From the NCBI GenBank assembly GCA_026770705.1, contig JANJGN010000012.1, positions 133,858,001 to 133,922,000 of the forward strand: a DNA stretch of 64,000 nt, read 5' to 3'. Origin of the DNA: Isurus oxyrinchus (lineage: Eukaryota). The position numbers and the translations under genes were made by a program. Below, one piece after another: positions 269 to 42,144 of this stretch; positions within the stretch are counted from its first letter, which is position 1; each line of letters starts with the position of its first letter. The notes under the pieces were generated by a model, which had not been told where the DNA came from, ran no database searches, and worked only from the letters and a program-made list of their open reading frames with translations.

Positions 269-780
269 TTAATCCGAGGCTTGGATGTAAACTGGAACTG
301 TGACCATGGTGACGCCTTGGCTGGTTGGCAGCTCTGTCAAGCCGGCGCTAGCAGGCGCCGAGACAGCCAGCCAGGTCTGACTCGTGTTGCCGGTGGCGCT
401 CGCGTCCTCCGATTCAGACAGGACGATGACGGGCTCCTCCTCGCGCCCCTCAGCCCTCGGCGGCGCCGGCGGCGGCTGCTGCTGCACCTCGGCCTCTTGC
501 CTCAATGCCCCGGGAGCCGCGCGGCTCCCCACCGTGGCTCTCTTGGGTTTGTACGGCCCCCTGCGGGCCCCACAGCGCCGCTTCCTCGCCTGCCGCTCCT
601 CCCCTCGCCCGGCGAAGAGCCCGCACCGGTGCTGCTTGAGGTACTTCTCACGCGTGAAGCCTTTCCCACAGGGCCCACAGCGGATGGTGTAGGTGTCCGT
701 GTGCGAGTGCTGGTGTTCCATCATGTGAGCTCGCCGGCTAAAGCTCTTGCTGCAATACTGGCACTTGTACGGCTTGATTC
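269..780 (-). CDS. ZNF341: ZNF341 last coding exon (exon 15): two C-terminal zinc fingers and tail
   Basis: Acceptor gctgtag|GA; reads GIKPYKCQYCSKSFSRRAHMMEHQHSH...RCGPCGKGFTREKYLKQHRC...VPVYIQASD, then TAA; 512 nt, phase 1 start. Confidence 0.96.
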
Positions 781-2999: not shown

Positions 3000-3070
3000 C
3001 TGAGTGGGCAATTATATGAGCCTTCAGCTTGTCAGGTCTATTGAATTCTTTTGTGCAACCCGAGTGTACC
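3000..3070 (-). CDS. ZNF341: ZNF341 exon 14
   Basis: cattcacag|G GTA...CAC TCA G|gtaggt; reads [23 protein letters not shown]; 71 nt; not in the ORF track. Confidence 0.95.
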
Positions 3071-3147
3071 CTGTGAATGATACAAAGCAGAGAGAATAAC
3101 CCAATCATTCATTCATACATCACAGTGCCACAGTTAGAAACTGCTTT

Positions 3148-3516
3148 TGGCCAAGACTAACCAATCACTTGGGATGGAACAGCTATTGGCCAATACTGAC
3201 CTATCACTTGGGATGGAACAGCTATTGGTCCACACTGACCTATCACTTGGGATGGAACAGCTATTGGTCCACACTGACCAATCACTTGGGATGGAACAGC
3301 TATTGGTCCACACTGACCAATCACTTGGGATGGAACAGCTATTGGTCCACACTGACCAATCACTTGGAATGGAACAGCTATTGGTCCACACTGACCAATC
3401 ATGTGGGATGGAACAGCTATTGGTCCATACTGACCAATCACTTGGGACAGAACAGCTACTGGTCAATACTGACCAATCACTTGGGATGGAACAGCTATTG
3501 GTCAATACTGACCAAT
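3148..3516. repeat. 39-bp minisatellite, about 9 units (ACTGACCAATCACTTGGGATGGAACAGCTATTGGTCCAC)
   Basis: Direct tandem units; 13-aa periodicity in four overlapping spurious ORFs. Confidence 0.97.
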
Positions 3517-6227: not shown

Positions 6228-6339
6228 CTGAAAGGGCACTTGAATTTCTTGACAGGGTCATGGGTTAGCATGTGCCTCTTCACTTTATCTTTGCGATTAA
6301 ATGCTGCTGAACACAACGTGCACTTAAATGGCTTTTCAC
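6228..6339 (-). CDS. ZNF341: ZNF341 exon 13
   Basis: ttgaacag|GT GAA...TTC AG|gtaggt; reads [37 protein letters not shown]; 112 nt. Confidence 0.95.
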
Positions 6340-6830: not shown

Positions 6831-8749
6831 AGTAAACTTAAAAAAGGACAGACCAGGGTTGAACTTTGAACTTCTGTTGTGAAAACCTCAGCTCGTGACC
6901 GAGTAAACCACCAAGACAGTTTCATTGGATTATATTTCTGGATGAACAATACCCGGTGATATCAAAATGATTTAACAGCTCTTAATAAGCCTAATAAATA
7001 TTGTGCTGTGAAATATAAATAAAATTTCAGCACCGTTGGGAGTTATAAATATTCATTTTATATAATTTACATAGTAAATAGCTCTGCTATTGCTCATCTC
7101 TAGGGTCCTGTATTTACAATAAGCAGATTCCCATCCCAAAGGTATTGTAATTGTTGTTTTTACATAAAAATAGATTGTGTTAGTCACATCTACAGCCGTC
7201 AAGTTACTTCAGCTGTCTCATGGTTTCAGGATGAACAGCGAGAAACAGTCAGGTTGCGATTTTGTTGCAAGCGTGTTAAAGCTTCACAATATTCCAAAGC
7301 ATCCCACACAAAGTCACCACTGTAACGTAGGGATTGAGGCAGCCAATTTAAGCCCAGCAAAGTCCCCAAAAACAACAATGTGATAAAGTAGCTGGTCAGG
7401 ACACCTAGGAGAATTCCCCTGCTCGTCTTCAAAATAAAGCCAGGGAATCTTTTACCATCACAAGGGAGCAGGCAGGTCTCGCTTTAATAGTTCCCCTAAA
7501 GTTGGCACCGCGGTCGATGTTGCACATTGTGGGGGGGGGGGGGGCCAACACTGCCGTGTGTGCGCGAAGGGTTAAAGGTTACTCAATACATCTTGCCTAA
7601 CATTACAAACCCAGATCTGGTATCAGTCAATAATTGCACAGGGTCATAAGGGCTTTTTGTGGATGAACCTGTGTGTCCTATTAGACGAAGAGGAAGGAAG
7701 GCTTCTGCTGCATTTGGTGCCATAAAGTGCTCCCGGCGGAAGGACAGGACTGTTGTGATGCAGAATAAAAATGCTCTTCAACTGCGCTGATAATGACTTT
7801 TAACCACCAGCCCCCACCCACCTTTACCCCAGAAAGGCCACATCCAGCTGTACCAAGTGCAATGTTTACATTTCTCACATTACCCGCCCTTTCTACCCCA
7901 GGCCAGTTTGCAAAGACGCTGCCAGTCCTTACAGCATCACCAGGTTCGACTGACCAAGCACATTCCACACTGGATCCCCAGGGGGACTTCATTCCATTGG
8001 CCCTTAAACCTCAAATCCAAGGACGTTCTCCCCATCACCATTGGACAGTAAGTAAAAACCTACCATCACCCAGTCTGTATTCAAACGGTCACCATCATTA
8101 ATCAACCTCCATCCTCTGGTTCACTATGACTGCTTCTAAGTTAGCACTTAGTTAGCTGACAGACTTTATGGATATCTAGAATGGATGATCAATCTGTACG
8201 CAGAGAGGAGAGGTACGTTCAGATTTCCAGTTCTATCCTTCCAGTCCTTTAAAGAACATTCCCTCTTCGACTCCAGGTTCTGCCTACATTGAAGGTGCAT
8301 GTCACAACAACAACAACAACGACAACTTGTATTTATGTAGCACGTTTAATATAATTAAACATCCATGGCACTTCACAAAATTTGCCTTGCTTGGTTAAAG
8401 AGGTCGGTTTGAAGGTGGAAAGCAGGGTAGAGAGGCGGAGCGCTTTGCAGAAGGAATTCCGGAGGTGAGCATTTCGGTAGCTGAAGGCACAGTCAGTCAC
8501 CAAAGATGGAGTGACTGATGTCGAGGATGGTCAAGAGGCCCAGAATTAGAAGAGAACAGAGATCTCCAAGTCACAGTTAAGACCCAATGAAGTCTCTGTT
8601 CCCAAATTCTTTGAAAACAGTCTATTTCCATAAATGGCTGAGGTTACTTATTTCAAAGTTAACGCTGTCAAACAACACTTCCTGCCTTAATGGTTCTTAA
8701 ATTCTTCGAAGAGGCTTTATTAACAGCCTTACGGAAGCCGGACTTACCT

Positions 8750-11062: not shown

Positions 11063-11195
11063 CAGAATGAATGAGGAGGTGAAGTTTGAGATAGTGTTCA
11101 GTTTTGAATGACTTTTTACATATCTGACACTTGAATACGCCCCCTCCACCATGCACAGGGAGATGTCTCCGCAGATACCTCTCACTTGGGAAGAC
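11063..11195 (-). CDS. ZNF341: ZNF341 exon 12
   Basis: ttcacag|GTC...TCT G|gtaagt; reads [44 protein letters not shown]; 133 nt. Confidence 0.95.
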
Positions 11196-20239: not shown

Positions 20240-20271
20240 CTTTAAATGTAAAGGAGAGAGAGTGGGAGGAG

Positions 20272-23020
20272 GGAAAGAGAGAGAGCGAGCGGGAGAGAGA
20301 GCGAGCGAGCGGGAGGAGAGAGAGAGCGAGCGAGCGGGAGGAGAGAGAGAGAGCGAGCGGGAAGAGAGAGAGAGAGCGAGCGGGAAGAGAGAGAGAGAGC
20401 GAGCGGGAAGAGAGAGAGAGAGCGAGCGGGAAGAGAGAGAGAGAGCGAGCGGGAAGAGAGAGAGAGAGCGAGCGGGAAGAGAGAGAGAGCGAGCGGGAAG
20501 AGAGAGAGAGAGCGAGCGGGAGGAGAGAGAGAGAGCGAGCGGGAGGAGAGAGAGAGAGAGCGAGCGGGAGGAGAGAGAGAGAGAGCGAGCGGGAAGAGAG
20601 AGAGAGCGAGCGGGAAGAGAGAGAGAGAGAGCGAGCGGGAAGAGAGAGAGAGAGCGAGCGGGAAGAGAGAGAGAGCGAGCGGGAAGAGAGAGAGAGAGCG
20701 AGCGGGAGGAGAGAAAGAGAGAGCGAGCGGGAGGAGAGAGAGAGAGAGCGAGCGGGAAGAGAGAGAGAGAGCGAGCGGGAAGAGAGAGAGAGAGCGAGCG
20801 GGAAGAGAGAGAGCGAGCGGGAAGAGAGAGAGCGAGCGGGAAGAGAGAGAGAGCGAGCGGGAGGAGAGAGAGAGAGAGCGAGCGGGAGGAGAGAGAGAGA
20901 GAGCGAGCGGGAAGAGAGAGAGAGAGAGCGAGCGGGAGGAGAGAGAGAGAGAGCGAGCGGGAAGAGAGAGAGAGAGAGCGAGCGGGAAGAGAGAGAGAGA
21001 GCGAGCGGGAAGAGAGAGAGAGAGCGAGCGGGAGGAGAGAGAGAGAGCGAGCGGGAGGAGAGAGAGCGAGAGCGAGCGGGAAGAGAGAGAGAGAGCGAGC
21101 GGGAGGAGAGAGAGAGAGAGCGAGCGGGAGGAGAGAGAGAGAGAGCGAGCGGGAGGAGAGAGAGAGAGCGAGCGGGAGGAGAGAGAGAGAGAGCGAGCGG
21201 GAGGAGAGAGAGAGAGAGCGAGCGGGAGGAGAGAGAGAGAGCGAGCGGGAGGAGAGAGAGAGAGAGCGAGTGGGAAGAGAGAGAGAGAGCGAGCGGGAGG
21301 AGAGAGAGAGAGCGAGCGGGAGGAGAGAGAGAGAGCGAGCGGGAGGAGAGAGAGAGCGAGCGGGAGGAGAGAGAGAGCGAGCGGGAGGAGAGAGAGAGAG
21401 AGCGAGCGGGAGGAGAGAGAGAGAGCGAGCGGGAGGAGAGAGAGAGAGCGAGCGGGAGGAGAGAGAGAGAGCGAGCGGGAGGAGAGAGAGAGAGCGAGCG
21501 GGAGGAGAGAGAGAGAGAGCGAGCGGGAGGAGAGAGAGCGCGAGCGGGAGGAGAGAGAGAGAGAGCGAGCGGGAGGAGAGAGAGAGAGCGAGCGGGAGGA
21601 GAGAGAGAGAGCGAGCGGGAGGAGAGAGAGAGAGAGAGCGAGCGGGAGGAGAGAGAGAGAGAGAGCGAGCGGGAGGAGAGAGAGAGAGAGAGCGAGCGGG
21701 AGGAGAGAGAGAGAGCGCGAGCGGGAGGAGAGAGAGAGAGAGCGCGAGCGGGAGGAGAGAGAGAGAGCGCGAGCGGGAGGAGAGAGAGCGCGAGCGGGAG
21801 GAGAGAGAGAGAGAGAGCGAGCGGGAGGAGAGAGAGAGAGAGCGAGCGGGAGGAGAGAGAGAGAGAGCGAGCGGAAGAGAGAGAGAGAGCGCGAGCGGGA
21901 GAGAGAGAGAGAGCGAGCGGGAGAGAGAGAGAGAGAGAGCGAGCGGGAGGAGAGAGAGAGAGAGCGAGCGGGAGGAGAGAGAGAGAGAGCGAGCGGGAGG
22001 AGAGAGAGAGAGAGAGCGGGAGGAGAGAGAGAGAGAGAGAGCGGGAGGAGAGAGAGAGAGAGCGAGCGGGAGGAGAGAGANNNNNNNNNNNNNNNNNNNN
22101 NNNNNNNNNNNNNNNNNNNNNNNNNNNNNNNNNNNNNNNNNNNNNNNNNNNNNNNNNNNNNNNNNNNNNNNNNNNNNNNNNNNNNNNNNNNNNNNNNNNN
22201 NNNNNNNNNNNNNNNNNNNNNNNNNNNNNNNNNNNNNNNNNNNNNNNNNNNNNNNNNNNNNNNNNNNGAGAGCGAGCGGGAGGAGAGAGAGAGAGAGAGA
22301 GCGAGCGGGAGGAGAGAGAGAGAGAGAGCGAGCGGGAGGAAAGTGAGAGAGAACGAGCGGGAGGAAAGTGAGAGAGAGCGAGCGGGAGGAAAGTGAGAGA
22401 GAGCGAGCGGGAGGAGAGAGAGAGCGAGCGGGAGGAGAGAGAGAGCGAGCGGGAGGAGAGAGAGAGCGAGCGGGAGGAGAGAGAGAGCGAGCGGGAGGAG
22501 AGAGCGAGCGAGCGGGAGGGGAGAGCGAGCGAGCGGGAGGGGAGAGAGAGAGAGCGAGCGGGAGGAGAGACAGAGAGCGAGCGGGAGGAGAGAGACAGAG
22601 AGCGAGCGGGAGGAGAGAGACAGAGAGCGAGCGGGAGGAGAGAGAGAGAGAGCGCGAGCGGGAGGAGAGAGAGAGCGAGCGGGAGGAGAGAGAGAGAGAG
22701 CGAGCGAGAGGAGAGAGAGAGCGAGTGGGAGGAGAGAGAGAGCGAGTGGGAGGAGAGAGAGAGCGAGTGGGAGGAGAGAGAGAGCGAGTGGGAGGAGAGA
22801 GAGAGCGAGTGGGAGGAGAGAGAGAGAGCGAGTGGGAGGAGAGTGAGAGTGGGAGGACAGAGACAGAGAGAGAGAGTGGGAGGACAGCGAGGGGGGAGTG
22901 GAAGGAGAGAGAGAGAGAGAGAAAGAGAGGGAGTAGGAGAGAGAGGGTAGGAGGAGAGAGAAAGAGAGTGGGAGGGGAGAGAAAGAAAGTGGGAAGAGAG
23001 AGAGTTGGAGAGAGAACAAG
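20272..23020. repeat. Purine-rich compound repeat (GA)n-GCGAGCGGGA(G/A), containing a 187-N gap at 22081-22267
   Basis: Directly visible; source of the 700-970 aa low-complexity ORFs. Confidence 0.97.
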
Positions 23021-30721: not shown

Positions 30722-30780
30722 CTGCAGAAGCAGCACAAAGAGCCGTGACTGCAGACAACCGCAACAGAGTGTATAGCGCA

Positions 30781-31420
30781 GCTCAAACTCCCCCCCCCCG
30801 CAGCTCACACTCCCCCCCGGCCCGGCTCACACTCCCCCCCGGCCCGGCTCACACTCCCCCCCGGCCCGGCTCACACTCCCCCCCGGCCCGGCTCACACTC
30901 CCCCCGGCCCGGCTCACACTCCCCCCCGGCCCGGCTCACACTCCCCCCCGGCCCGGCTCACACTCCCCCCCGGCCCGGCTCACACTCCCCCCCGGCCCGG
31001 CTCACACTCCCCCCCGGCCCGGCTCACACTCCCCCCCGGCCCGGCTCACACTCCCCCTCCCTCTGTAGTTCAAACTCCCAGTCACCTCCCCCCCCACCCC
31101 ACCACCTGCTTCACACTCCTCCCCCTGCCCGCCTCAAACTGCACCCCCCCGCAGTTCAAACTCCCCCCCCACCACCGCAGCTCAAACTCCCCCCCACCCC
31201 CGCAGCTCAAACTCCCCCCCGGCCCGGCTCACACTCCCCCTCCCTCTGTAGTTCAAACTCCCAGTCACCTCCCCCCCCCACCCCACCACCTGCCTCACAC
31301 TCCTCCCCCTGCCCGCCTCAAACTGCCCCCCCCCCCGCAGCTCAAACTCCCCCCCGCCGCAGCTCACACACACCTCCCCCCCCGCCCCACCGCCCGCCTC
31401 ACACTCTTCTACCCCCCCCA
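30781..31420. repeat. C-rich ~23-bp minisatellite (CCCGGCCCGGCTCACACTCCCCC) followed by a ~120-bp direct repeat
   Basis: Tandem units from 30800 to 31060; 31038-31154 is repeated at 31221-31340. Confidence 0.93.
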
Positions 31421-32189
31421 CCACTCATAAAACCCAACAGGCAGCTGCTCTTCAGTAAAGAGATGACCTGAGGGGTGACCTGAGGGTAGAGGTAGCAACA
31501 ACCTTTGCGCCTATGGGGGTGGGGGAGTCCACAAGTAGGGGGCCATCAATATAAGACAGTCACTAATAAATCCAATCGGGAATTCAGGAGAAATGTCTTT
31601 ACCCGGAGAGTGAGGCGAATGTGGAACTGGCTCACACAGGGAGCGATTGAGGTGAATATTATCGATGGATTTAAGGGGAAGTTGGATAAGCAAGAGGGAG
31701 AAAGGGATAGAAGGACATGATGATGGGGTGAGACGAAGAGGGGGTGGGAGAAGGCTCGTGGGGAGCGGAACCTCTGATATAGACCAGCGAGGATCCTGTG
31801 TCTGTGCTTCAGAAACTGTAACTCTCCACTCCATAAGATTACAAGAGAAACAGGACAGGAAAGGGTTAATTCAAAATCACTTCAATCGAAACCGCGACAA
31901 ACAGAGCAGGTCAGTCAATTCTCCAACTGATGTACACCCTGCTTCCAAGAGTGAGAAACACAGAAAGAGGAGGCTCCCAGAGATCCCACAACTAGTGAGG
32001 AAAACAGTTGGAGTCTGTGACTTGGATCCGAACTGAACGGGAAACCCAAAATTCCGGGGCTCTGGGGAGTTAAAATGCACCATCACACAGGGATATCGGC
32101 CAATAGGGAGCAATGGGATTAGTCCGAGGGATAGGGAGGGAGTGCGGAAGGGATTTCATCAGAGGGAGAGAGAGCAGTGAAGTGGGATT

Positions 32190-33696
32190 TAATCACTGAG
32201 AGAAAGAGCGGGAGCAGTGGGATTTGGTCACTGGGAAAGGGAGGGGGGGCAGTGGGATTTAGTCACTGGGAGAGAGAGGGGGGGCAGTGGGATTTAGTCA
32301 CTGGGAGAGAGAGCGGGTGCAGTGGGATTTAGTCACTGAGAGAGAGAGCGGGGGCAGTGGGATTTAATCACTAAGAGAGAGCAGGGGCAGTGGGATTTAG
32401 TCACTGGGAGAGAGAGCGGGTGCAGTGGGATTTAGTCACTGGGAGAGAGAGTGGGTGCAGTGGGATTTAGTCACTGGGAGAGAGAGCGGGTGCAGTGGGA
32501 TTTAGTCACTGGGAGAGAGAGCAGGAGCAGTGGGATTTAGTCAATGGGAAAAGGAGGGGGGGCAGTGGGATTTAGTCACTGGGAAAGGGAGCGGGGGCAG
32601 TGGGATTTAGTCACTGGGAGAGAGAGTGGGGGCCGTGGGATTTAATCACTGGGAGAGAGAGCGGGGGCAGTGGGATTTAGTCACTGGGAAAGGGAGCGGG
32701 GGCAGTGGGATTTGGTCACTGGGAGAGAGAACGGGGGCAGTGGGATTTAGTCACTGGGAAAGGGAGCGGGGGCAGTGGGATTTAGTCACTGGGAAAAGGA
32801 GCAGGAGCAGTGGGATTTAGTCACTGGGAAAAGGAGCGGGGGCAGTGGATTTAGTCACTGGGAGAGAGCGGGGGCAGTGGGATTTAGTCACTGGGAAAAG
32901 GAGCAGGGGCAGTGGGATTTAGTCACTGGGAGAGAGAGCAGGGCAGTGGGAGTTAGTCACTGGGAGAGAGTGGGGGCAGTGGGATTTAGTCACTGGGAGA
33001 GAGCGGGGGCAGTGGGATTTAGTCACTGGGAAAGGGAGCGGGGGCAGTGGGATTTAGTCACTGGGAGAGAGAGCAGGGCTGTGGGATTTAGTCACTGGGA
33101 GAGAGAGCGGGGGCAATGGGATATAGTCACTGGGAGAGAGAGCGGGGGCAATGGGATATAGTCACTGGGAGAGAGCAGGGCAGTGGGATTTAGTCACTGG
33201 GAAAGGGAGTGGGGACAGTGGGATTTAGTCACTGGGAGAGAGCGGGGGCAGTGTGATTTAGTCACTGGGTGAGAGAGCGGGTGCAGTGGGATTTAGTCAC
33301 TGGGAAAGGGAGCGGGAGCGGTGGGATTTAGTCACTGGGAGAGAGAGCAGGGCAGTGGGATTTAGTCACTGGGAGAGAGAGCAGGGGCAGTGGGATTTAG
33401 TCACTGAGAGAGAGAGCGGGGGCAGTGGGATTTAGTCAATGGGAAAGGGAGGGGGGCAGTGAGATTTAGTCACTGGGAAAGGGACCGGGGGCAGTGGGAT
33501 TTAGTCACTGGGAAAGAGAGCGGGGGCAGTGGGATTTAGTCACTGGGAAAGGGAGCGGGGGCAGTGGGATTTAGTCACTGGGAGAGAGAGCGGGAGCAAT
33601 GGGATTTAGTCATTGGGAGAGAGAGCAGGGCAGTGGGATTTAGTCACTGGGAGAGAGAGCGGGTGCAGTGGGATTTAGTCACTGGGAAAGGGAGCA
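32190..33696. repeat. 33-35-bp minisatellite (GCAGTGGGATTTAGTCACTGGGAGAGAGAGCGGGG)
   Basis: More than 40 tandem units running into the assembly gap. Confidence 0.97.
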
Positions 33697-33796
33697 NNNN
33701 NNNNNNNNNNNNNNNNNNNNNNNNNNNNNNNNNNNNNNNNNNNNNNNNNNNNNNNNNNNNNNNNNNNNNNNNNNNNNNNNNNNNNNNNNNNNNNNN
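33697..33796. other. Assembly gap (100 N, probably unsized)
   Basis: Run of exactly 100 N between two different tandem arrays. Confidence 0.98.
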
Positions 33797-35050
33797 GAGT
33801 GAGGGAAGTGAGGAAGGAGAGGGGTGAGTGAGGGAAGGAGAGGGGTGAGTGAGGGAAGGAGAGGGGTGAGTGAGGGAAGGAGAGGGGTGAGTGAGGAGGA
33901 GAGGGGTGAGTGAGGGAAGGAGAGGGGTGAGTGAGGGAAGGAGAGGGGTGAGTGAGGGAAGGAGAGGGGTGAGTGAGGGAAGGAGAGGGGTGAGTGAGGG
34001 AAGGAGAGGGGTGAGTGAGGGAAGGAGAGGGGGTGAGTGAGGGAAGGAGAGGGGTGAGTGAGGGAAGGAGAGGGGTGAGTGAGGGAAGGAGAGGGGTGAG
34101 TGAGGGAAGGAGAGGGGTGAGTGAGGGAAGGAGAGGGGTGAGTGAGGGAAGGAGAGGGGTGAGTGAGGGAAGGAGAGGGGTGAGTGAGGGAAGGAGAGGG
34201 GTGAGTGAGGGAAGGAGAGGGGGTGAGTGAGGGAAGGAGAGGGGTGAGTGAGGGAGAGAGGGAGGTGAGTGAGGGAAGGAGAGGGGTGAGTGAGGGAAGG
34301 AGAGAGGGGTGAGTGAGGGAAGGAGAGGGGTGAGTGAGGGAAGGAGAGAGGGTGAGTGAGGGAAGGAGAGAGGGTGAGTGAGGGAAGGAGAGGGGTGAGT
34401 GAGGGAAGGAGAGGGTGAGTGAGGGAAGGAGAGGGTGAGTGAGGGAAGGAGAGGGTGAGTGAGGGAAGGAGAGGGTGAGTGAGGGAAGGAGAGGGATGAG
34501 TGAGGGAAGGAGAGGGTGAGTGAGGGAAGGAGAGGGTGAGTGAGGGAAGGAGAGGGTGAGTGAGGGAAGGAGAGGGTGAGTGAGGGAAGGAGAGGGTGAG
34601 TGAGGGAAGGAGAGGGTGAGTGAGGGAAGGAGAGGGTGAGTGAGTGAGGGCAGGAGGGGGAGTGAGTGAGGGAAGGAGGGGGAGTGAGTGAGGGCAGGAG
34701 GGGGAGGAGTGAGTGAGGGAAGGAGGGGGAGTGAGTGAGGGAAGGAGGGGGGAGTGAGTGAGGGAAGGAGGGGGGAGTGAGTGAGGGGAGGGGGGAGTGA
34801 GTGAGGGAAGGAGGGGGGAGTGAGTGAGGGAAGGAGGGGGGAGTGAGTGAGGGAAGGAGGGGGAGTGAGTGAGGGAAGGAAGGGGTGAGTGAGGGAAGGA
34901 GGGGGGGTGAGTGAGGGAAGGAGGGGGGGTGAGTGAGGGAAGGAGGGGGGGGTGAGTGAGGGAAGGAGGGGGTGAGTGAGGGAAGGAGAGGGTGAGTGAG
35001 GGAAGGGGGGATGAGTGAGGGATGGAGGTGGATGGAGTGAGTGAAGGAGG
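33797..35050. repeat. 20-23-bp purine-rich minisatellite (GAGTGAGGGAAGGAGAGGGGT)
   Basis: Directly visible; source of the PSLT/FPHS ORFs. Confidence 0.97.
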
Positions 35051-35842
35051 GGGGTGAAGTGGGTGGGTGGGGGAGAGGGGTGAAATCGCTCTCCAGTGGT
35101 AAAGGATTAACCCCCCCCCGCCCCAATCCCGCAGTTTTCGGAGACTCTGACAGAACACGAGGCCATTTGGCCCATTCCTGCTGAGTCAGCTCTCTGACCG
35201 GCTGGTTTCATGGATCCCGGTTCTCCCGCTCGGTCTCCCTCGGGCCTGAAAACTTGTCCTTTTGAAGCATTTATTCCACATCACAACAACTTACAGCATT
35301 TCCCCCACCGCCACCCACCCAAGCATTTATTCCACATCACAACAACTTACAGCATTTCCCCCACCACCCCCCCCCCCTCCTCCTCCACTTCTCCAACCCA
35401 CCCCCACCCCCCAAACTCGATTCTCCACCGGCCAAACACACTCCCCCGTGACCCCCAGGGCTGACCTTCCTTCTCAAAGACCCCCCCCACCCGACACAGA
35501 GAGAGAGAGAGAGAGATCCCATCAGGACAACCACACCAGACACTCTCCCAGCCTCAGCCCAGGCTGGACAGGGAGGGGGTCAAACATCCTCGACTGTTAC
35601 CAGGCCCTGGCCTTACATTTCAGCTTCTCTCTGTGGGTCTGGTTAATAGTAAAACCCCTCGGCCTACGACTCATCACCTATTGGTTCTCGGTTAAGTGTC
35701 AGCTTCAACTCATCACCCGTGTCTGTCTGCTCGCTGCCTTGGAGACAACACTGCGCACCGCAGCTCAGCATCTAACACGCTGGCCCGGGGACTGGAGTCA
35801 CGAAAACAGGCCGCTCGACCCCAGCCAACCCCTCTCACTCAC

Positions 35843-38599: not shown

Positions 38600-39420
38600 C
38601 ATGCAGCCCTGCCCTGCCCTGCCCTGCCCTGCTTTGCCTTGCATTGCAAGCCTGTGAGTGAGCAGGAGAACTGGGCTCCTGCCTGGTTATTTTTTAAAAA
38701 GCCTCCCTGGCTTTTCCAACAAGCCCTGACCCTCCTGCCATCTCCCTCCAGCTTCCTTTACTCTGGGAGCTGCTGTTCCAGAGCTTCTCCCCCCGGGGGA
38801 AACTGCTCCACTCAGACCTGCAAACACCGCCTCCTCCTCCCCACCACCATTAATGCTAAGAAAGGAATATTTTTTTTTAAAAAAAAAGACCCTTAATACT
38901 GGGAGGGGCGGTGGGTTTTTTTTTTGGGGGGGGGAGAAAAATTAACTACAAAATGCAGAACAATAGTTTCCAGCTGCAGACATTGCAACAAAATAAGGAA
39001 ACAGCACAAGACGCTGCGCTGCAGAGGGGCAGGGGTCCCAGTGCAAAATGCAATGCCTGAGGGTGAAGCACCCCTTCTGGGAAGGTGGGAAATGTTGCAT
39101 TTTATTACCTGCCAACGCCTCGAAAATTGCTTGCGCCATCTTGGAGCTTCTCTGTTGTGTTTGAGGCTGGGACGATGGGAAATGGAAGAAGCTGAAATCC
39201 TCCCTGTCTGCAGAGAGCGGCCTGTCCACCAGAGGGAGCAGCCGACCACAAAAAAAAAATAAATCCTGACTTGCACTGGAGCGGGCCTCCTGCAGGGGGA
39301 GCTCGCAGCCCCCAGTTCCCCCAGCCCACACACCAACTTGTTAAAAATGACTTCTGTCAAAAGACAAGAGAATAATTTCAGATTCTAAAAGTAAAATAAC
39401 ATTCAGGACTTCTTGCCCCA
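38600..39420 (-). promoter_or_regulatory. ZNF341 promoter / exon 1 / start of intron 1 region
   Basis: Repeat-free segment around exon 1; YY1-type AAGATGGCG over the start codon; TGGAACAGC at 38772-38780. The transcription start cannot be placed. Confidence 0.5.
39109..39139 (-). CDS. ZNF341: ZNF341 exon 1 coding part
   Basis: aagATGG Kozak context; MAQAIFEALA G|gtaata; 31 nt, phase 1, joins exon 2 in frame. Confidence 0.93.
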
Positions 39421-40872: not shown

Positions 40873-42144
40873 AAAAACAAAAACCTGCGGATGCTGGAAA
40901 TCCAAAACAAAAACAGAATTACCTGGAAAAACTCAGCAGGTCTGGCAGCATCGGCGGAGAAGAGCAAAGTTGACGTTTCGAGTCCTCATGGCCCTTCAAC
41001 AGAACTAAGTAGAAATAGGAAAGGGGTGAAATATAAGCTGGTTTAAGGAGGGGTGGGGGGGTGGTGGTGGTGGTCTGGTTGTTAGGACAAGCAAGCAGTG
41101 ATAGGAGGAGATAACCAAAAGATGTCACAGACAAAAGAACAAAGAGGTGTTGAAGGTGGTGATATTATCTAAAAGATTGTGCTAATTAAGATTGGAGAGC
41201 AGGACAAGCAAGGTAGCTCTAGCGGGGGTGGGGTGAAATAAACCATGGGCGGAATACATTTAAAAATAATGGAAATAGGTGGGAAAAGAAAAATCTGTAT
41301 AAATTATTGGAAAAAACAAAAGGAAGGGGGAAACAGAAAGGGGGTGGGGATGGAGGAGGGAGTTCAAGATCTAAAGTTGTTGAACTCAATATTCAGTCCG
41401 GAAGGCTGTAAAGTGCCTAGTCGGAAGATGAGGTGCTATTCCTCCAGTTTGCGTTGGGCTTCACTGGAACAATGCAGCCCGCAAGAATGACCCAAACCTC
41501 CCTGTCGCTTGCTATTTTAACTCTCCACCCTGCTCTCTTGCCCACATGTCTGTCCTTGGCCTGCTGCATTGTTCCAGTGAAGCCCAACGCAAACTGGAGG
41601 AACAGCACCTCATCTTCCGACTAGGCACTTTACAGCCTTCCGGACCGAATATTGAATTCATCAACTTTAAATCTTGAACTCCCTCCTCCATCCCCACCCC
41701 CCTTTCTGTTTCTTCCCCCTTCCTTTAGTTTTTTCCAATAATTTATATAGATTTTTCTTTTCCCATCTATTTCCATTATTTTTAAATGTATTCCACCCAT
41801 GGTTTATTTCACCCCACCCCCACTAGAACTACCTTGCTTGTCCTGCTCTCCAATCTTAATTAGCAACTTCTTTTAGATAATATCACCACCTTCAACACCT
41901 CTTTGTTCTTTTGTCTGTGACATCTTTTGGTTATCTCCTCCTATCACTGCTTGCTTGTCCCAACAACTCTTCCCCTCCCCCCACCACCCCCCCCCCCCCC
42001 CCCGCTCCCCTTAAACAAGCTTATATTTCACCCCTTTCCTATTTCTACTTAGTTCTGTTGAAGGGTCATGAGGACTTGAAATGCCAACTTTGTTCTTCTC
42101 CGCCGATGCTGCCAGACCTGCTGAGTTTTTCCAGGTATTTCTGT
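40873..42144. mobile_element. Fold-back Penelope-like element: two inverted ~600-bp 3' ends joined head to head
   Basis: 40913-41478 is the near reverse complement of 41563-42144; both arms encode the GIY-YIG C-terminus (EAQRKLEE.HLIFRLGTLQPSG.NIEF); tttccttat duplicated at 40864-40872 and 42145-42153. Confidence 0.9.

Follow-up and report, generated by a model that had tools for sequence, protein, structure and literature searches.

The ZNF341 gene of Isurus oxyrinchus holds, in an intron near its 3' end, a minisatellite whose repeated unit contains the core of the motif that ZNF341 itself likely binds. We regard this array as a neutral, lineage-limited intronic minisatellite whose partial ZNF341 motif is likely coincidental and has no selected feedback role, and would put the probability of this reading at roughly 0.7. 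It is favoured by a repeat-rich host gene, by a match of the units to the ZNF341 consensus at 9/11 positions, by the lack of the G-rich box that forms the other half of the two-part human site, and by the absence of measurable constraint on the motif.

The window, as we call the whole 64-kb stretch that was analysed, contains ZNF341 on the minus strand. Its last exon is 85% identical to that of Mustelus asterias ZNF341, and twelve exons were placed by tblastn with shark homologues (Table 1). The array sits between the third-last and second-last of them, which is intron 13 by the 15-exon count of human ZNF341 (PMC10620851). This agrees with the placement in the initial annotation; the intron number was obtained by counting back from the 3' end, with three N-terminal exons not found. 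With one query, exons 3-5 (~175 N-terminal residues, including finger 1) gave no match in the window or the genome. They were probably lost at a 100-N stretch between two satellites (33697-33796), in the interval 30730-35840. An assembly problem is likely, since the Mustelus model P0001 also lacks the N-terminal part. Elsewhere in the gene, a GA-rich, CpG-rich satellite (20240-23004) abuts the 5' end of exon 9, and this exon has no in-frame AG acceptor at its aligned start, the nearest lying 24-27 bases inside. Upstream of exon 1, at 41200-41680, two copies of a dispersed repeat appear by eye to lie close together in inverted orientation.

Table 1. Features of the ZNF341 window and of other loci in the same genome; plain numbers are window positions.
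Feature	Location	Strand	Remarks
ZNF341 last exon, coding part	269..780	-	
ZNF341 exon 14 (second-last)	3000..3070	-	acceptor 86 bases from first full unit
Decayed partial unit at left edge of array	3117..3155	+	2 mismatches in core; by eye
39-bp minisatellite	3156..3516	+	9.3 copies at one locus; free of CpG; inverted repeat formed by the unit ends
ZNF341 exon 13	6228..6339	-	upstream border of host intron
Intron-1 near two-part site	38710..38736	-	1 mismatch per half, 13-base spacer; 60 bases beyond the intron-1 core
Intron-1 ZNF341 core	38769..38780	-	10/11 to 12-mer consensus; ~330 bases into intron 1
ZNF341 exon 1, coding part	39109..39139	-	start codon at 39139
Exact two-part ZNF341 site in CpG island	G000 C14 ~55,062,890-55,062,920 (L088 ~7890-7920)		11.5 kb upstream of STAT1 first coding exon
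Predicted STAT3 promoter	G000 C23 ~17,235,350-17,235,510 (L093 350-510)		CpG island 25 kb upstream
Repeat family with reverse transcriptase, 8-10 kb	L061-L070, G000 C1		13 loci in first 107 Mb

TRF gives 93% matches and zero indels for the array, and its head-to-tail units fall in the 10-60-base range of minisatellites at one locus. Each unit carries CCAAT at positions 6-10, the ZNF341 core GGAACAGC at 21-28 and a reverse CCAAT at 30-34, with successive cores 31 bases apart. The counts first given for the motifs hold: TGGAACAGC is intact in eight of the nine full units (unit 8 is broken), and most units have CCAAT boxes on both sides, the forward (+) box being intact in 7/9 (broken in units 2 and 3) and the reverse box ATTGG in 8/9 (broken in unit 8). 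The seven intact forward boxes are of NF-Y type with purine flanks, a context we call good by what we take to be the NF-Y flank consensus. However, the two boxes of a unit are the arms of a single inverted repeat (DNA fold z = -2.9; RNA z = -5.9) and therefore do not count as two independent signs. Two other resemblances seen by eye were set aside as further post-hoc matches, namely a presumably ERSE-II-like word with one mismatch, and an inverted pair that we take to be oestrogen-element-like, whose spacer exceeds the expected length by one base.

Across the 4.98-Gb genome, a 23-mer taken from the unit has nine matches at up to two mismatches, all within the array. We rejected a dispersed-repeat origin of the unit, as 3100-3560 matches one locus in a genome word search (which can miss common words) and a pattern search agrees. 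A coding role for the 39-base period was likewise rejected; open reading frames span the array on both strands, and homologous proteins have nothing between exons 13 and 14. Local duplication of the self-complementary unit most likely made the array, and slippage or unequal exchange, helped by the inverted ends of the unit, may have driven its growth.

How surprising is a gene that holds an array of its own product's motif? The window contains 11 motif matches, against 0.91 in shuffles, but this comparison overstates the significance because eight of the matches are copies of one unit. The gene is also rich in such repeats, with seven minisatellites (period 20-50) in 39 kb, compared with seven in 200 kb of random DNA. 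Within the gene, 428 of the 65,536 possible 8-mers occur tandemly tripled (0.65%, or ~2.6% for the four allowed cores), as do 440 of the 262,144 9-mers (0.17%). Genome-wide, tripled TGGAACAGC (the core with its leading T) has 383 matches, with 6 loci in the first 1.68 Gb among those listed, and these genome counts give a chance of ~0.07% for ZNF341 after a fivefold correction for local density. The post-hoc chance of an own-motif array is thus about 0.1-3% per gene (0.07-2.6%), a small value that speaks against the neutral reading. On the other hand, random 40-kb blocks each hold 89-176 tripled 8-mers, so that the factor genes of the genome, which we presume to number about a thousand, would give one to ten chance matches. 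For a single gene such a match is unusual, but a scan of the genome would be expected to yield one. Binding of ZNF341 to its own intron is documented, however, which raises the prior for feedback.

The human ZNF341 core is GGAA[CG][AG]GC, and a G-rich box 13-14 bases upstream of it possibly marks a high-affinity two-part form (PMC10620851); a 12-mer consensus has been given as TGGAACAGCCNC (PMC9202446). We scored sites against these consensus strings as taken from secondary papers. The initial annotation had put forward the human motif and a regulation by ZNF341 of its own locus, and both are borne out in the accessible part of the review, where six sites lie beneath a ChIP peak in human intron 1, and ZNF341 mRNA is raised in deficient cells, indicating self-repression (PMC10620851).

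Would the shark protein read this motif? Over ten canonical fingers (finger 1 and two atypical C-terminal fingers being left out), its recognition residues equal those of the pig cluster and macaque at 35/40 positions; the fingers had been called well conserved with human, which holds for these rows, human itself being left out. The residues of fingers 2 and 3 are invariant across all 12 aligned rows, and under the recognition code that we assume, these are the fingers that would read the core. At 11063-11195, finger 9 has T at recognition position -1 in the cartilaginous and ray-finned fish rows but R or K in the tetrapod rows, and finger 8 has S at its position -1 in the cartilaginous fish rows only.

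We scanned 330 kb upstream of the shark STAT genes, including 140 kb at STAT5, for two-part sites, whose exact form has a background of ~0.2 per Mb. The exact site upstream of STAT1 lies near a GAS-like word and CCAAT boxes. The predicted STAT3 promoter has one core matching at 11/11 and another site whose G-box is perfect and 13 bases away. Beside them lies a CRE-like and STAT-like pair, which presumably resembles the mammalian one. The 140 kb upstream of STAT5 contain zero exact two-part sites. Both promoters are predictions based on position and CpG content, and the chance rate is higher in G-rich islands. Taken together with the conserved recognition residues, these sites make it likely that shark ZNF341 reads the human motif, and they suggest that the ZNF341-STAT circuit may predate the shark split, which would make it as old as jawed vertebrates.

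By the same measure, the array units are poorer sites. The allowed core is present in eight of nine, and in the match to TGGAACAGCCNC both positions of the CNC 3' tail differ. Of the seven sites in the window that have no more than one mismatch in each half, none falls in an array unit, so the G-rich box is missing there, as the initial annotation had cautioned, and no exact two-part match exists within the 64-kb window. The predicted STAT3 and STAT1 sites, which lie within CpG islands, are better: they reach 11/11 or have a perfect G-box 13-14 bases away. Better sites are also found in intron 1 of the shark gene (Table 1), where they stand against a background of 0.085 per kb for exact cores and 0.155 per kb for near two-part sites. 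This pair is the more likely shark counterpart, by position, of the human cluster, and any conserved self-repression more likely runs through it, as in humans, than through the array. Intron 1 does, however, hold only about two good sites versus six in humans, which counts against the neutral reading. Shark ZNF341 could plausibly bind the naked DNA of the array weakly, and methylation of the array's own sequence cannot block the site, as the array has no CpG.

The initial annotation proposed that the array may be a feedback enhancer, silencer or decoy tunable by copy number. As a feedback element on ZNF341, it would group weak ZNF341 sites into a homotypic cluster, made accessible by NF-Y at the CCAAT boxes, that most likely adds to self-repression of the gene. 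Eight intact cores in the gene's own intron, the low chance of the match (0.07-2.6%) and the invariant residues of fingers 2 and 3 all argue for this, as do the motif at the predicted STAT promoters, the self-repression of the human gene through six clustered intronic sites (PMC10620851), the precedent of MYB10 R6 in apple (PMC11321683) and the sharing of the array with a relative. Yet the units have neither the G-rich half nor the CNC tail, the start codon of ZNF341 is 35.6 kb away, the motif is under no measurable constraint and the core of the edge unit has decayed, and intron 1 holds better sites. NF-Y is also absent from the spaced partners of ZNF341 in human ChIP data, which in the accessible part of that study are only SALL4 and ZIC2 (PMC6868382). 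We consider such feedback unlikely, though an enhancer or silencer role keeps a small probability: the premises concerning motif, self-regulation and fingers stood up, while the inference drawn from them is weakened by the partial motif, the lack of measurable constraint and the intron-1 sites.

Constraint was assessed from the 11 distinct changes among the nine units. The core accounts for one of these, where 2.3 were expected (P=0.31), and the three motifs together account for three, where 5.1 were expected (P=0.17). Neither the core nor the motifs together are thus measurably better kept than the rest of the unit, in a low-power test that leans the 'conserved' way. About half of the sampled words are present in sequencing runs of a second, related organism. 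The close relative also carries the array, its contigs showing both array borders with several times the cover of the flanks (the left border in X16 and X18, X5 having no cover there; the right border in X6, X15 and X18). In its first unit, one base is deleted and the reverse CCAAT is broken. Its contigs list no core change, with one CCAAT and one spacer base changed, and this, together with the low power of the constraint test, weighs against the neutral reading. The flanks of the relative differ at ~3 positions in 470 bases, too few to test constraint. Contigs of four samples of the related organism with array cover show several copies, although contig depth gives no copy number.

The array might instead act on a different promoter. 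The nearest is that of the next gene, CHMP4B, whose start codon is about 7 kb (~7.3 kb) away and whose exon 1 and CpG island lie ~4.2 kb left of the window. An NF-Y-type enhancer of this promoter, with or without ZNF341, would fit the CCAAT boxes that 7/9 units keep in good context, one per 39 bases. But a change that destroys CCAAT has spread across two units, and one unit of this array, like one of the relative's, has lost its reverse box, which leaves this explanation quite improbable. We give still less credit to an effect on the pre-mRNA, in which stacked hairpins upstream of a candidate branch point would tune the inclusion of exon 14. The array starts just upstream of the exon-14 acceptor, a word that we take to be branch-point-like lies near 3133-3139, and the transcript strand folds at z = -5.9. 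However, tandem units with inverted ends yield low z-scores by construction, and the predicted fold leaves the last bases before the acceptor unpaired.

A decoy that titrates ZNF341 protein, also raised in the initial annotation and favoured by the eight clustered cores, can practically be dismissed on genome-wide numbers unless these eight are the only accessible ones and bind far more tightly. Tripled GGAACAGC has 11,666 matches in the genome, compared with 554 and 835 for CpG-free permutations. These permutations replaced reversed-pattern controls (160, 0 and 591 matches), which include a CpG and underestimate the background (0 in 200 kb); the genome-wide count of 993 two-part sites is uninformative. 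The single core occurs seven times in 200 kb of random DNA, or ~170,000 times genome-wide by extrapolation. Since most of the triple matches are better (10/11) than the array, its eight weaker sites cannot titrate ZNF341 amid such numbers.

Among the tripled GGAACAGC matches listed, 15 loci fall in the first 107 Mb, 13 of them belonging to one family. Ten of these 13 were compared, and all share kilobases of flank, mostly at 70-85% identity. Four family loci have a reverse-transcriptase match, three of them above the Pfam cut-off (35 frames scanned); searches of the family for endonuclease, RNase H and integrase gave no match. Its minisatellite has a 26-33-base unit with a 10/11 ZNF341 match and lies several kb upstream of the reverse-transcriptase frame, antisense to it and just behind a CCAAT box. 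Judged by these sequence features, this is an old retroelement family, presumably L1/Tx1-like in look, that extrapolates to ~600 loci carrying ZNF341-core arrays. Beside one retroelement copy there is a short open frame (L015 2512-2772), which we take to be NEDD8-like and which is possibly a processed pseudogene.

Returning to the array as a neutral minisatellite, one close likeness is to the ordinary minisatellites of vertebrate introns and to expression-linked VNTRs, which, as far as sources available in part describe them, it resembles in period, copy number, 93% homogeneity, single locus and repeat-rich gene; it differs in that its unit holds the host's own motif core. The human intron-1 cluster likewise places several cores in an intron of the same gene, but its sites are 4-30 bases apart, whereas those of the shark array are 31 bases apart, in intron 13, and arose by tandem duplication (PMC10620851, accessible part). 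The MdMYB10 R6 minisatellite of apple is also a tandem repeat in a transcription-factor gene with the factor's own site in its unit; it exists as alleles of one and six copies, and the accessible part of the source reports both binding and autoactivation as demonstrated (PMC11321683). R6 is, however, located in the promoter, while the shark array is not promoter-proximal but in a late intron, has a partial motif and is known from sequence alone. Literature searches outside subscription journals, covering shark ZNF341, ZNF341 with NF-Y or transposable elements and autoregulatory minisatellites, returned no description of the array, and for ZNF341 in sharks only unrelated review material.

If functional, the array would be an animal counterpart of apple MYB10 R6, a tunable feedback element upstream of STAT3 signalling. 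One shark lineage would then have gained a second feedback module atop an ancient circuit, built by tandem amplification of the factor's core site together with NF-Y boxes and able to tune ZNF341, and through it STAT3/STAT1 dosage, by copy number, which we hold to be a touch less probable even than feedback as such. If neutral, it offers a calibrated case of how frequently a repeat-rich shark gene would hold its factor's motif by chance. The by-products of this analysis, namely the STAT promoter sites and the retroelement arrays of the same core, may matter more than the array itself. The two-part sites at the predicted shark STAT1 and STAT3 promoters suggest that the circuit disrupted in human hyper-IgE syndrome is older than the shark split.
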